Shown piece by piece: positions 47,780-56,480 of a stretch of 64,000 nt of DNA (positions are counted from its first letter, which is position 1; each line of letters opens with the position of its first letter). The position numbers and the translations under genes are program-made. This DNA comes from a phage: sequence record PQ724394.1. One strand, written 5' to 3'. Under the pieces are notes generated by a model. That model worked only from the letters and a program-made list of their open reading frames with translations. It had not been told where the DNA came from and searched no databases.

Positions 47780-48363
47780 TTACGGCATTCCTCAATAAAA
47801 GAGTTTAATGTATTTTTCTTAGTGATATCGTCATACACCTTTTTAACTTTAGAAATACGAAAAGGTACTTCAACAACTGCAGTCCATAAAAATGATGCGA
47901 TAAGTCCTAAGATAGCCGCAGACATCGCTGAAGCAAATAGCGTAATAGGCAGGTCATTATCCGTTGTCAGGAAAAACCCTAGGAGTGGGAAAAATAATAT
48001 CCCCATCCAAACATAGAACCTAGAACTCACTAATTTGTCGTATTCATCACTCCATGTACGAAAGCCGTATTTTTTGCTATAACAAATCAATGGGTCTGGT
48101 GTCTGTTCTTTATGGGGTTCCGGTTGCCAACCATTTACGATATATCCCATTTTATATTCCTCAATTAAAAGTTGTTTCATTTCAGCAGTACAACCTGACC
48201 AATCTATTGTACTGGCTGAAATTCCTTCATCGCCATCATCAATATTTCGCCAGGACTTTTTAATAATCATATTCTCACCACTTGGGATAATGATTCCGGC
48301 ATTTTCTGACCGACGGATGAAGTTTACATCAACACCCATGCATCCGGGTTCATAAAGGGCCAT
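47776..48363 (-). CDS. hypothetical membrane protein (195 aa)
   Basis: Two C-terminal TM helices; C-terminal FIEECRK motif. Confidence 0.45.
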   Translation of the reverse strand: MALYEPGCMGVDVNFIRRSENAGIIIPSGENMIIKKSWRNIDDGDEGISASTIDWSGCTAEMKQLLIEEYKMGYIVNGWQPEPHKEQTPDPLICYSKKYGFRTWSDEYDKLVSSRFYVWMGILFFPLLGFFLTTDNDLPITLFASAMSAAILGLIASFLWTAVVEVPFRISKVKKVYDDITKKNTLNSFIEECRK

Positions 48364-49049
48364 TACCAGCCCTCCATAGGGAATTCCAGATATACTTGAG
48401 CATTAACGCGGATTTCATTTGTAATCTTTTTAACACGGTCGGTATTACGAGACACACGACCAAACCAGCGCCAACCGTTACTTACTGCACGAGAACCTGT
48501 ATGCCATGTCTGCCAATCAAACTGGAGCAATGTGCGGTCAGGAGCATCCCACTTGGTTAGTTCATTGGACTCGATTTTTTCCAGAACTTCTTTATGCCAC
48601 TGGCGATAGATAAGTTCGCCTTCAGGAATCTGGCTAAATTGTGCAGTTCCGGTTGCAAAATAAGTAGGACACACATCAGCGTTAACAAGACCAAGAATAT
48701 GTTCAGAATGGTATCGAGGATTATCATAATCAGGTTGCCCTGCAGTAATAAAGTGTTGACCAACCGGAATATCCGGACGTGGTACATCATCATGGTGATA
48801 ACCTGGGATAGCAGGATACCAACCAGGCATAAGCATATGAACTCGAGAATCAAATACAACCTGGTCGGTGTTCCACTCATCTGGCAGGTTCATGATGAAG
48901 CTGCGAGTAATAGGGCCGCCGTTATCAAAAGCGAAGGCCAACGAACTGTTGAAGAACATAGTTTCATTTTTGATTTTATCGTTAGAAATTTTACCGGCAA
49001 AACTACCTACTGCACGAGCTTTGGAATTAAAAGTTTTCGGGCCGTTCAT
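48363..49049 (-). CDS. hypothetical protein, possible 2OG-Fe(II) oxygenase-like
   Basis: 228 aa; H-x-D (HHDD), distal His (WHTGSRA) and R-x-S spacing. Confidence 0.45.
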   Translation of the reverse strand: MNGPKTFNSKARAVGSFAGKISNDKIKNETMFFNSSLAFAFDNGGPITRSFIMNLPDEWNTDQVVFDSRVHMLMPGWYPAIPGYHHDDVPRPDIPVGQHFITAGQPDYDNPRYHSEHILGLVNADVCPTYFATGTAQFSQIPEGELIYRQWHKEVLEKIESNELTKWDAPDRTLLQFDWQTWHTGSRAVSNGWRWFGRVSRNTDRVKKITNEIRVNAQVYLEFPMEGW

Positions 49050-49063
49050 AATATTTTCCTCAA

Positions 49064-49354: not shown

Positions 49355-50314
49355 TTATTTTTCGAAAGGACGAATTAAATGTTGATTACGCTTAAACCGG
49401 TTGATGTAGTCACTTTCACCTAGGGTCCTATACATATTCACTACAGCTTGGTAGTTTTCCCAAGCATACTCACGGAACCATCCAGAAGTAATGGAGGTAC
49501 AGACTTTTTCCAGAGCAACATGGAAGCTCACGGATGGAGAGATATTAAAGTCATTAGGAACCTGCGAACGCTCCAGAGCAAGTACACATGCTTCTTCATA
49601 AACGCCGGCCAGTTTAATAGCTTCAGGCAAAGCTTCAAACTTCTCACGTGAGGTCATGACTTCAGAACCATCCTTCATATAAAAGGTATACGCTGGACGT
49701 CCGGCTAATGCCACAGCTTCATGGATAGAGTCGTGGTCTAATGTATAAATGGTATCATTAAAGAACGATGATTTGTTTACATCCAATTTAGGATGAGAAT
49801 AGCTCAACGTTTCTTTCTGACGTTGCAGCATGATTTCTTGGAGCTCTTCATTCAAGGTTACACCTTTATTACGAAGATATTTGATGTGGGACATCGTCTT
49901 CAAAAAGAAAGGGTTGTTCTTCAAATAACGATGGCTCATTTTGATGGCCAGACAGATATCAGGTGTGGCCCAATAGAAACCCGTAAGACGGTCCTTTTTA
50001 ATATGATTTTCGGCATATTTCAGGAGACGATAACTTGAAGTGAAATCTTCGCCCTGAAGCTCACCGGTGATTTCTCGTACGTTAGTCAGGGCACGGACGA
50101 TATAAGCTTCAAAATAGGTTTCTTTACCATTGTGCATACATTTAAAGGCCTGGACATCAGGGTTATCCACAGGAACATGAGCGCCGAACATCCGGGCTTT
50201 AAATTGATTCCATGAGCCTTGGTCGGCAATAAAATCCCAATCAGAATTTTCGATATACTTACTTTCAATCAGACCAGCGTGGTGCAGTGCACGAGAACCA
50301 ATAACTAGCATCAT
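49355..50314 (-). CDS. hypothetical protein (319 aa)
   Basis: Long ORF; loose G-S...D-x-D pattern near the N-terminus. Confidence 0.5.
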   Translation of the reverse strand: MMLVIGSRALHHAGLIESKYIENSDWDFIADQGSWNQFKARMFGAHVPVDNPDVQAFKCMHNGKETYFEAYIVRALTNVREITGELQGEDFTSSYRLLKYAENHIKKDRLTGFYWATPDICLAIKMSHRYLKNNPFFLKTMSHIKYLRNKGVTLNEELQEIMLQRQKETLSYSHPKLDVNKSSFFNDTIYTLDHDSIHEAVALAGRPAYTFYMKDGSEVMTSREKFEALPEAIKLAGVYEEACVLALERSQVPNDFNISPSVSFHVALEKVCTSITSGWFREYAWENYQAVVNMYRTLGESDYINRFKRNQHLIRPFEK

Positions 50315-50516
50315 AATATTTTCCTCATTAATAAAGACGAGTTACTTCATATTTACCCAGTTCAGATTTTTTTGCTTCAATACGCGTTGCGGCTAGATTA
50401 GCAGCCTCTAGTGAAGAAAATTGGACCACTTGGGAAGTATTCTGCCTTACGCCACCTTGTGGGTGAGTAACAAAAACAATAAGAACATTATACATAATAT
50501 TTTCCTCAGAGTAAAC

Positions 50517-51161: not shown

Positions 51162-51386
51162 TTAACAGCTACTTGGGTACCAGATTTTACCATCAGAGCG
51201 AGCAACGAAGGTACGACCAGCTTCTTCACCATAACAAGAGCTATTCAGCCAATCTTCAAGACGAACTTCACCGTCGTAATCATCTAGCTCAACACCAAAA
51301 TCCTGAGCAGAAGCCATATCTTTTACTTTCTTATACAGCGCAGCCAGTTCAAGAGCTGCTTTTTCTAATTCATTAATATTAGACAT
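51162..51386 (-). CDS. small protein, member of tandem family with C-terminal W-x-x-S-S-C tail
   Basis: AAGGAA RBS; ends ...KIWYPSSC. Confidence 0.5.
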   Translation of the reverse strand: MSNINELEKAALELAALYKKVKDMASAQDFGVELDDYDGEVRLEDWLNSSCYGEEAGRTFVARSDGKIWYPSSC

Positions 51387-51395
51387 TTTTATTCC

Positions 51396-51626
51396 TTAGC
51401 AAGACATAGAGGAGTTAAACCAGAAACCCTGGCCATCATTGATGCCGTAATCACTGCGAATCCAGTCATATTCTTCATATTCTTCGCTAGAAGCCGGAAT
51501 ATAACGTTGGAAACGGTCTGCGGCGTGTAAATTAAAAATTTCACCGGTTTTATCGGCCAACTGCTCGCCTTCACAGATTAGTGCACGGATTTGGTCTTCG
51601 ATTTCTTTAACAGTTTTAGCAGTCAT
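51396..51626 (-). CDS. small protein, tandem family member
   Basis: AAGG RBS; ends ...GFWFNSSMSC. Confidence 0.5.
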   Translation of the reverse strand: MTAKTVKEIEDQIRALICEGEQLADKTGEIFNLHAADRFQRYIPASSEEYEEYDWIRSDYGINDGQGFWFNSSMSC

Positions 51627-51635
51627 TTTATTACC

Positions 51636-51833
51636 TTAACATTCGTAAGAGGAGGACACCCAAGAGGTACCACTAATAGTAATACAACCGTTATAAAGCG
51701 TTATATGTCGTTCTAAGTCACGAGCACCATCAATATAGATATCAGCTTCTTCGCGTTCTTCTTTACAAATCTGAATAACGTTTTCAATAGCCGCCGCTGC
51801 GGTACGGATTGCACAATCTAATTCACGAGACAT
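51636..51833 (-). CDS. small protein, tandem family member
   Basis: AAGGAA RBS; ends ...TSWVSSSYEC. Confidence 0.5.
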   Translation of the reverse strand: MSRELDCAIRTAAAAIENVIQICKEEREEADIYIDGARDLERHITLYNGCITISGTSWVSSSYEC

Positions 51834-51842
51834 AATATTTCC

Positions 51843-52124
51843 TTAACATTCAGAAGAAGAGGACACCCAACCGCCAGTTGCGAGGTCAGTTGTATAGTCA
51901 TGAGTATTAACAATAGCCCATTCAGGATGACCATCTTCTTCCCAATGGGCAAGGTCAGCTTTCAAGGCGCCAGGAGAATAATAGTCACCGCCCATACCGC
52001 GAGCAGGGTATATATTAAAATGAGTCTCATATTTGTCTGCAATTTCCTCGGCACGACGAATAGCTTCATGAATTTCTTTTACTGCGGCCAGAAGCTCTGG
52101 ATGGTTATGATTATCATTCATCAT
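51843..52124 (-). CDS. small protein, tandem family member
   Basis: AAGGAA RBS; ends ...GGWVSSSSEC. Confidence 0.5.
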   Translation of the reverse strand: MMNDNHNHPELLAAVKEIHEAIRRAEEIADKYETHFNIYPARGMGGDYYSPGALKADLAHWEEDGHPEWAIVNTHDYTTDLATGGWVSSSSEC

Positions 52125-52133
52125 AGCTTTTCC

Positions 52134-52424
52134 TTAGCACATTGCCGAAGAGGAGACCCAGGCACCAACTGTAACGACGCCATTTTCAACTTCACCGCCA
52201 TTGTTTTCAATTTCATCTTTAAACCACTGGGAGCATTCATAACCAACAGGGTAGTAGGTACGTCCTGAGCCATAATCACCTGTTCCGAATTGAATACCGT
52301 ACTTATCGGCAATAGCTTCACATTTGGATTCGATGATATCTACTTTACCGAGCAGGGCATAGATAGCTTTTTCTGCAGATTTCTCGTCGTTGTATTCAGG
52401 GATTTCAATTTCAATTTTATTCAT
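52134..52424 (-). CDS. small protein, tandem family member
   Basis: AAGGAA RBS; ends ...GAWVSSSAMC. Confidence 0.5.
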   Translation of the reverse strand: MNKIEIEIPEYNDEKSAEKAIYALLGKVDIIESKCEAIADKYGIQFGTGDYGSGRTYYPVGYECSQWFKDEIENNGGEVENGVVTVGAWVSSSAMC

Positions 52425-56189: not shown

Positions 56190-56480
56190 TCGGGGTTCCA
56201 CCTGCTAGGCAAGTGTTTGTACGAAACGCCGGGATTCGAACCCGGTTATTAAGCAGTTGACGCTACTCAATATTTTTTTAAAAGGCCATATCTCGACCAT
56301 ATCCGAACGTTCCGTCAAAAACGCTACTCGGCTTACGGCAAAGATATTTCCTCGAATCGATAATTCGATGCGCCGTTTCAGCTGTGATAGTAAAGAACCA
56401 GAACACAGTAAAACTGTGGGAGGAACTATACTCCAGGGAACTTCAGTCCGACGACTTACCGGTAGCGACCCGGTTTCTTG
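56190..56480 (-). ncRNA. possible small stable RNA(s) with tRNA-like T-arm, adjacent to tRNA cluster
   Basis: CCGGG-TTCGAAT-CCCGG T-arm-like element at 56229-56245 without foldable anticodon or D arms; several palindromes; analogous position to T4 stable RNAs C and D. Confidence 0.3.

Follow-up and report, generated by a model that had tools for sequence, protein, structure and literature searches.

The closest known group to the phage protein described here are the PhyH-like Fe(II)/2-oxoglutarate (2OG) dioxygenases (PF05721 clan), which include PhyH itself (2a1x), EasH (4nao), EctD (4nmi), EvdO2/HygX, ColD (8xpf), KanJ (7cl2), and proline hydroxylase H11. The protein is encoded at 48363..49049 on the minus strand of a 64,000-nucleotide stretch of phage DNA (sequence record PQ724394.1; the whole stretch analysed is referred to as the window). 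The gene is an uninterrupted open reading frame (ORF) of 228 codons reading from an ATG, assigned to PHROG 1843 and orthologous to EpJS10_0118 of phage JS10. Taken as a whole, the observations are probably best explained by a small, single-domain PhyH-like Fe(II)/2OG oxygenase of a phage accessory family, with the NAD+/ADP-ribose system as a tentative candidate for its place of action. PHROG 1843 is an uncharacterised family within a very well-known superfamily, and its association with the NARP operons, which serve NAD+ reconstitution, is the part worth following.

Two described phage systems invite comparison. T4-like cyanophages carry small, uncharacterised 2OG-Fe(II) oxygenase genes, likewise in variable regions of their genomes (PMC3037559), but these belong to other families, share no detectable sequence homology with the window protein, and gave only weak structural matches in BFVD (E about 1e-2). 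The second is Adpp, a macro-domain ADP-ribose (ADPR)-1''-phosphate phosphatase of NARP1-AP that accompanies 15% of NARP1 operons (bioRxiv 10.64898/2026.01.28.702374). The reported share of phage genomes is 1.1% for NARP2 and 5.4% for NARP1 plus NARP2 (bioRxiv 10.1101/2024.02.11.579819). Similar to Adpp, the oxygenase is an extra enzyme that recurs in or beside NARP1 and NARP2 operons in a minority of phages, and Adpp was recognised from a pattern of this kind. It differs from Adpp in its fold and in that it would oxidise rather than hydrolyse, and most members, including that of the window, do not lie beside a NARP operon.

Predicted fold and active site

An AlphaFold2 model built from an alignment of 38 homologs reached a mean predicted local distance difference test score (pLDDT) of 88.7 and a predicted template modelling score (pTM) of 0.87, with low confidence only at loop 88-115 and the last six residues. 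Successive beta strands in the model fit a jelly-roll core. The protein is predicted to fold as a double-stranded beta-helix (DSBH), and its structural neighbours are exclusively Fe(II)/2OG oxygenases. Many of these hydroxylate or halogenate free amino acids (GriE, proline hydroxylases, HalB/HalD, SadA, IDO, NapI, and EctD). PhyH-like small-molecule enzymes outscored AlkB enzymes in the structure search, no TET or JBP structure was among the matches listed, and BFVD returned only uncharacterised viral proteins. As modelled, the protein is PhyH-like in fold and closest to PhyH-type 2OG oxygenases. The first-pass annotation, made from the sequence alone, had suggested the 2OG-Fe(II) oxygenase class with great reserve, to be given up if the fold were of another kind or if the motif residues varied among homologs. 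The predicted DSBH fold and its neighbours bear the suggestion out, and the motif residues are conserved, as detailed below.

At the level of sequence families, Pfam and NCBIfam gave no match for the 228-residue protein even at E <= 10, phmmer against the PDB returned noise only, and a family profile matched PDB sequences only below threshold (E about 1). Comparison of 112 family members with Pfam likewise yielded only sub-threshold noise, with AraC_binding (a cupin) in four members and PhyH in one (E 0.068). Given that sequence-family thresholds were missed, we do not file the protein as a member of PhyH (PF05721). PADLOC holds no named family for it. The one full-length match was to PHROG 1843 (function unknown; E 5.1e-93), with residues 1-228 aligned to profile positions 1-222 of 222.

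All the elements from which the first-pass annotation had argued are present in the protein: H-x-D at residue 85 (within HHDD), a distal His in WHTGSRA, and GRVS. The codons for H85-H86-D87 lie at 48789..48797 on the minus strand (H85 48795-48797, H86 48792-48794, D87 48789-48791, with D88 the next one); H85 and D87 would supply the first two ligands of Fe(II). The codon of H183, the proposed distal ligand, is at 48501..48503 (minus strand) and falls in a strand predicted by the model for residues 182-185. This His follows H85 by 98 residues rather than the roughly 105 initially estimated. Codons for R194 to S200 (R-W-F-G-R-V-S) occupy 48450..48470 (minus strand; R198 48456-48458, S200 48450-48452) and correspond to a predicted strand at 192-201. 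There, R194 would bind the C5 carboxylate of 2OG, and R198 with S/T200 forms a further conserved basic/hydroxyl pair.

The pattern H-x-[DE]...H...R-x-S as such arises in 3.9% of shuffles of the same protein and therefore counts for little by itself. It stands out from chance through its conservation in an alignment of 112 full-length homologs, which are 32-91% identical to the query. H85 and R194 are present in 112/112 and form the sole invariant columns, and D87, H183, and R198 are each missing from one sequence only (111/112). Position 200 holds Ser in 71 and Thr in 37 homologs (108/112 together). Since H86 is variable (His in 54, Leu in 30, others in the rest), the metal pair would be H85-x-D87 and not H86-x-D88, and the facial triad is most likely H85-x-D87...H183.

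The assignment of the 2OG-binding Arg draws on two alignments. In that of the family profile with the lysine halogenase BesD from the PDB, H183 is matched to the second His and R194 to an Arg at +11 from it; in an hhalign comparison with human PhyH (the PHYH sequence used is identical to PDB 2a1x), H183 falls on H264 and R194 on R275, within a shared G-[FW]-R motif. Neither is significant and each is weak individually, but they agree in register (H183 as distal His, R194 at +11). We take H264 of PhyH to be the distal Fe ligand and R275 to be the 2OG-binding Arg, and in the phage protein the latter function most likely belongs to R194. The R-x-S element had originally been put forward for this function. 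As a conserved element it holds (R198-x-S/T200), but the Arg that aligns with PhyH is R194, which had been overlooked. R198, at +15 from the distal His, presumably has the spacing of the second, substrate-binding Arg of TauD and TfdA. In TauD, R266 binds 2OG and R270 binds the anionic substrate. With two arginines at +11 and +15, the window protein thus resembles what we take to be the TauD/TfdA-type arrangement. Further near-invariant positions are D67, R69, H71, R91, Q105-P106, H117, T129, N211, R214, Y220, and a C-terminal G-W; the polar residues among the near-invariant positions suggest a polar, probably anionic substrate.

Judged by its conserved residues and modelled fold, the 228-residue protein is very likely an active Fe/2OG oxygenase. 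In the mechanism that we envisage, H85, D87, and H183 would hold Fe(II), and 2OG would chelate the iron with its distal carboxylate paired to R194. Reaction with O2 would then decarboxylate 2OG, releasing succinate and CO2 and leaving a ferryl species to oxidise a C-H bond of the prime substrate, in the simplest case by hydroxylation. The residues D67, R69, R91, Q105, H117, T129, R198, S/T200, N211, R214, and Y220 could bind this substrate, which would be small, polar, and probably anionic.

Distribution and gene neighbourhoods of the family

A profile search of 1.84 billion cluster representatives (E <= 1e-3) recovered the family as 731 clusters at 50% identity, and homologs occur in 473/50,697 phage records (~1%). 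T4-like phages with a homolog infect Escherichia, Shigella, Klebsiella, Enterobacter, Citrobacter, Serratia, Erwinia, and Aeromonas, and ChristianSchoenbein of the BASEL collection (a Dhakavirus or Mosigvirus) also has one. Outside this group, homologs are carried by Stenotrophomonas siphophages (~70% identity), by cluster-M mycobacteriophages and Gordonia phages (~30%), and by Vibrio, Alteromonas, and Bacillus phages; a 71%-identical copy resides in a phage with an SPP1-type portal. A peptide-pattern scan of 185,579 bacterial and archaeal species, each represented by one genome, found only 24 loci. Four of these were inspected: two, in T7-like prophage settings, lie beside T7-like replication or RNA-polymerase genes, one (Binatia) was unclassifiable, and one, on a contig binned as archaeal, resembles viral loci. 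Given that copies of ~70% identity are found in unrelated phages and that cellular loci are few, the family is a mobile, strongly conserved, and essentially viral accessory gene.

Nearly all records label the homologs as hypothetical. A fold-level call is not new, as one GenBank record (Citrobacter phage Ursula, '2OG-Fe(II) oxygenase', a Phold-style label) and one UniRef name ('Phytanoyl-CoA dioxygenase family protein') already state it. For the window itself the gain is small: JS10/JS98-type coliphages have a gene labelled 'conserved hypothetical' to which the annotation Fe(II)/2OG oxygenase can be given with good confidence. Two further labels, 'tail sheath monomer' and 'baseplate hub subunit', attached to the homologs of Escherichia phages vB_EcoM_005 (P0109) and vB_EcoM_ESCO10 (H83), are almost certainly errors. 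In Aeromonas phage 65 (GU459069.1 182773-183458; H26), the homolog was recovered by tblastn in three pieces and is annotated as two or three short ORFs, of which BFVD holds E5DSD9 (143 aa) and E5DSE0 (86 aa); this copy is likely frameshifted or decaying, or reflects a sequencing error.

The neighbourhoods were compared across 187 loci (given here by L numbers) with flanks of at most 8 kb, taken from phage records, genomes, and viral contigs, the last covered by two scans that used different lead sequences; ORFs were called and clustered by BLASTP, and the loci were collapsed to 90 lineages by shared gene content. Outside the T4-like lineage, the commonest neighbour is a NAMPT-family gene (13/90 lineages), followed by genes for a metallophosphoesterase (8), DnaB (7), the bifunctional NMNAT-Nudix protein NatV (6), a macro domain (5), and a Prs-like protein (Adps; 4). 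Pfam confirmed the identities of these neighbours and added NADAR and a nucleoside deoxyribosyltransferase-like gene (L180), the quinolinate synthase NadA (L186), an extra Nudix gene (L181), and an ADP-ribosylglycohydrolase (ARH; L112). Each of the two published NAD+ reconstitution pathways is found among the loci, NARP1 (Adps and Namat) in L041, L075, and L180, and NARP2 (NatV and NadV) in L047, L060, L080, L084, L088, L177, L181, and L186. The genes are often arranged as in an operon. In L041, L047, and L080 the end of NadV and the start of the oxygenase share 4 bp, as do NadA and the oxygenase start in L186, and in L181 the oxygenase is placed between NatV and NadV. Overlapping stop and start codons, and an oxygenase lodged between NatV and NadV, point to co-translation in one operon.

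The association does not look like one recently spread cassette, because the NadV proteins of eight loci are diverged (mutual identity 25-46%, one related pair excepted) and do not track the divergence of their oxygenases: no co-evolution of the two was found in these eight loci (Spearman -0.12), so the pairing is either old or was formed repeatedly. An independent metagenome scan yielded 80 loci, 39 of them of at least 5 kb, with a NAMPT-family gene in 9, NatV in 7, ARH in 2, and NadA in 1. Two gene orders recurred there, NatV-oxygenase-NadV (L270, L293, and L299) and oxygenase-ARH-NadV (L314 and L325). In the 80 viral control loci anchored on ThyX, a NAMPT-family gene was found once and NatV never (1/80 and 0/80; Fisher p 0.001 per locus for the NAMPT enrichment).

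Association of the oxygenase with NARP appears to be unreported. We found no phage paper containing both 'NARP1' and 'oxygenase', in a literature coverage that is incomplete and thus offers absence of evidence only, and a survey of NAD+-ADPr systems does not mention dioxygenases (PMC9503650). Nor was a cultured phage with the order NatV-oxygenase-NadV found with three NARP-linked oxygenases as queries; the three neighbourhoods inspected among the matches listed were of other kinds.

Several of these islands are notable for their composition. In L180 (3700-8609, an uncultured phage), genes for a metallophosphoesterase, a Prs-like protein (Adps), a nucleoside deoxyribosyltransferase-like protein, NADAR, a NAMPT-family protein (Namat), and the oxygenase follow one another on one strand, as a NARP1 operon enlarged by three or four extra enzymes. 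NadA occurs together with NatV, NadV, and the oxygenase in L186 (5903-11033) and L296 (4286-9137), both viral or metagenomic. The order oxygenase, ADP-ribosylglycohydrolase, NAMPT-family gene is shared by L112 (7980-11198), L314 (492-3692), and L325 (224-2868); L112, on a contig binned as a Methanosarcinales archaeon, also carries an NMNAT-like gene and a DAO-type FAD oxidoreductase.

Candidate substrates and roles

Oxygenases embedded in NARP operons retain the invariant residues of the window protein and hence probably share its chemistry. Since relatives with these same residues sit in NARP1 and NARP2 operons, we tentatively propose that the enzyme acts on an NAD+/ADP-ribose metabolite or adduct and helps the phage to withstand NAD+-targeting host immunity. 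A wider and more doubtful reading is that the family constitutes an unrecognised oxidative arm of the NAD+ conflict between phages and bacteria, present in NARP1 and NARP2 operons and standing alone in many T4-like phages. The recurrent insertion into NAD+ reconstitution operons provides a concrete and cheaply testable hypothesis, and in the field of NAD+-centred immunity and counter-immunity accessory enzymes such as Adpp have recently been shown to matter. If the link to NAD+ is true, T4-like therapeutic phages with the gene may differ in their sensitivity to NAD+-targeting defence systems.

Three reactions can be imagined, all of them speculative. The enzyme might convert a non-canonical product of NAD+ breakdown or base exchange into a form usable by salvage enzymes. 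Alternatively, ADP-ribose adducts could be removed oxidatively by hydroxylation at the linking carbon, in analogy to AlkB. Finally, a KanJ-like oxidative deamination of L-aspartate to iminoaspartate might feed NadA and bypass NadB. This last idea stems from the phage-borne NadA of L186 and L296, where no NadB homolog was noticed among the checked neighbours, although no direct search for one was made.

Several points weigh against a role in NAD+ metabolism. We know of no reaction of NAD+ salvage that requires an oxygenase, so any such reaction would be new. The enrichment of NAMPT-family genes weakens to p = 0.03 after collapsing the controls to 41 lineages, a value that is only rough as the lineage definitions differ. 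Moreover, 77/90 lineages, including that of the window, have no NAD salvage gene within 8 kb, and the enzyme must therefore be able to work alone with host factors. Other homologs adjoin RtcB and metallophosphoesterase genes, or amidoligase and GATase genes, and the link to NAD+ is guilt by association.

The alternative that survives best, while still unlikely in our view, would make this a general auxiliary metabolic gene unrelated to NAD+, encoding an oxygenase of free amino acids or other small molecules; co-location with NAD genes would then reflect only shared accessory-gene islands. The many free amino-acid hydroxylases and halogenases among the structural neighbours, the weak profile match to BesD, and the large share of lineages lacking a nearby NAD gene all fit this explanation. 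It also accommodates a second kind of context that is unrelated to NAD salvage: in Vibrio phage 1.208.B, a zobellvirus (L350, 3815-9516), a distant homolog lies near GATase, amidoligase, and gamma-glutamyl cyclotransferase genes, and in the jumbo Bacillus phage Edson (L352, 2581-5621) another distant one is found beside glutathionylspermidine-synthase-family, VWA, and glyoxalase genes. However, shared islands alone would not readily account for the NAMPT family being the top neighbour, given its rarity in phages and around the control gene, nor for overlaps and a NatV-NadV position that imply co-translation.

The first-pass annotation had raised a nucleic acid or a protein as possible substrate. 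Neither received specific support: the closest folds belong to oxygenases of small molecules and amino acids, and the genes around homologs direct attention to NAD+/ADP-ribose metabolism. An AlkB-like enzyme that oxidatively repairs or modifies DNA, RNA, or tRNA, perhaps stripping off alkyl or ADP-ribosyl adducts left by host defences, would suit those homologs that lie in putative RNA-repair islands, and we consider it improbable. Actinophage homologs lie one to four genes from an RtcB RNA ligase and near a metallophosphoesterase, as in Mycobacterium phage Reindeer (L006, 729-8418) and Gordonia phage Cucurbita (L007, 3327-5666), where the homolog is between the two, with a block of eight tRNAs upstream in Reindeer. 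This context suggests an RNA-repair or counter-defence island, and RtcB is found again in L080 and L185. In addition, tRNA clusters are located within 8 kb in ~10/52 non-T4 loci and directly adjacent in two. We rank a tRNA-directed function among the rivals only, since the RtcB linkage comes down to one actinophage clade and two further loci and so to fewer lineages than the NAMPT linkage. In phage genomes, moreover, tRNA clusters are often found together with accessory genes in any case. Furthermore, PhyH-like small-molecule enzymes score above AlkB enzymes, Pfam gave no match to the 2OG-FeII_Oxy_2/AlkB models, and neither the AlkB sequence signature with its nucleotide-recognition lid nor a best structural match to AlkB homologs was found. 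As for the TET/JBP 5-methylpyrimidine dioxygenases of phages, to which the protein is not assigned either, neighbour clustering of the 187 loci revealed no DNA methyltransferase or glycosyltransferase of the kind involved in hypermodification.

Hydroxylation of a prolyl, lysyl, arginyl, or aspartyl residue in a universal protein of the host (a translation factor or a ribosomal protein, for instance) or in a phage protein could reprogram the infected cell, and this explanation seems hardly likely to us: Pfam gave no P4H or JmjC match, and a protein hydroxylase would leave the recurrent embedding in NatV/NadV operons unexplained. Some homologs are longer, through an N-terminal extension or a tandem copy (P0127, P0133, P0135, P0168, P0205, P0220, P0258, and others), and none of these has a Pfam domain hinting at a substrate.

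We regard it as very improbable that the protein is a DSBH fold without catalytic activity, whether a binder (for instance a small-molecule sponge; phage sponges for immune signals are known) or a structural component, as the two virion labels among the homologs might suggest. The triad and both arginines are invariant or nearly so over 112 diverse sequences, which marks an active site that has been maintained. The gene is placed among early and accessory genes outside the structural module, and the structural labels are single cases set against hundreds of records that call the same family 'hypothetical protein'.

The locus in the window

The tentative reading of an oxygenase tied to NAD+ and ADP-ribose has no counterpart in the immediate surroundings of the window gene, which stands alone, with neither an Adps/Namat nor a NatV/NadV operon around it. 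NadV, NatV, and RtcB probes had no match in the 64-kb window, where Prs-like/Adps genes were not probed for. nudE lies about 0.7-0.8 kb and the macro-domain gene tk.4 about 6 kb downstream, and this proximity says little because both are conserved T4-type genes.

The window derives from a Dhakavirus-type T4-like coliphage. The 228-residue protein is 99.1% identical to EpJS10_0118 ('conserved hypothetical protein'), and the gene order of JS10 is matched: tRNAs, further genes, a DUF7277/7275 gene, a small ORF, the oxygenase, e.2, a small ORF, nudE, e, further genes, and denV. The oxygenase gene, between lysozyme/nudE and the tRNA cluster, is on the same strand as the surrounding early-region genes, and its guanine-cytosine content (0.42-0.45) is hardly distinct from that of its flanks. 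A ribosome-binding site, GAGGA, can be read at 49057..49061 (minus strand), 7 nt upstream of the ATG, and the stop codon of the preceding gene is only 14 nt away. A consensus scan gave a weak sigma-70-like promoter match (TTTACT-17-TATAAT) at 50487..50515 on the minus strand, upstream of the same-strand run that includes the oxygenase; the number of promoter sites in the region did not exceed the expectation from shuffles. At its other end, the oxygenase stop (48363-48365) overlaps the ATG of a downstream 195-aa ORF (TAATG). PHROG 2203 and the JS10 annotation (e.2 membrane protein) match this ORF only from residue 32, and a later ATG is therefore probably the true e.2 start and the overlap probably unused.

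Upstream of the oxygenase, a 319-aa gene at 49355..50314 (minus strand) matches DUF7277 and DUF7275 in Pfam as well as PHROG 2141. Its homologs were found within 8 kb, usually directly upstream of the oxygenase, in 25/34 T4-like loci examined plus this window, and in 0/54 non-T4-like loci of the first scan; it is a lineage-specific neighbour of the oxygenase in T4-like phages. An invariant G-S-R-A...D-x-D-F pattern at the N-terminus is reminiscent of nucleotidyltransferase folds, and the 319-aa protein had no PDB match by profile, no PADLOC match, and no support from hhalign. Kinship with the Pol-beta-like nucleotidyltransferase encoded downstream of the oxygenase in L080 was considered and dropped; BLASTP and hhalign showed no similarity. 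Literature searches for DUF7275, DUF7277, and PHROG 1843 returned nothing.

Two other features of the region deserve mention. At 56219-56315 (minus strand), beside three tRNAs annotated in JS10 (Arg-tct, Asn-gtt, and Met-cat), ARAGORN calls a 97-nt 'tRNA-Phe(aaa)' that has no JS10 annotation and may be a false positive, a degenerate tRNA, or an intron-containing tRNA. At 51162-52424 (minus strand), five small paralogous ORFs (74, 76, 65, 93, and 96 aa) are arranged in tandem, each ~10 nt apart; their relatives in Citrobacter phage Ursula belong to PHROG 899 (function unknown), and all five share the C-terminal motif W-[VYF]-x-S-S-x(0-2)-C (IWYPSSC, FWFNSSMSC, SWVSSSYEC, GWVSSSSEC, and AWVSSSAMC).

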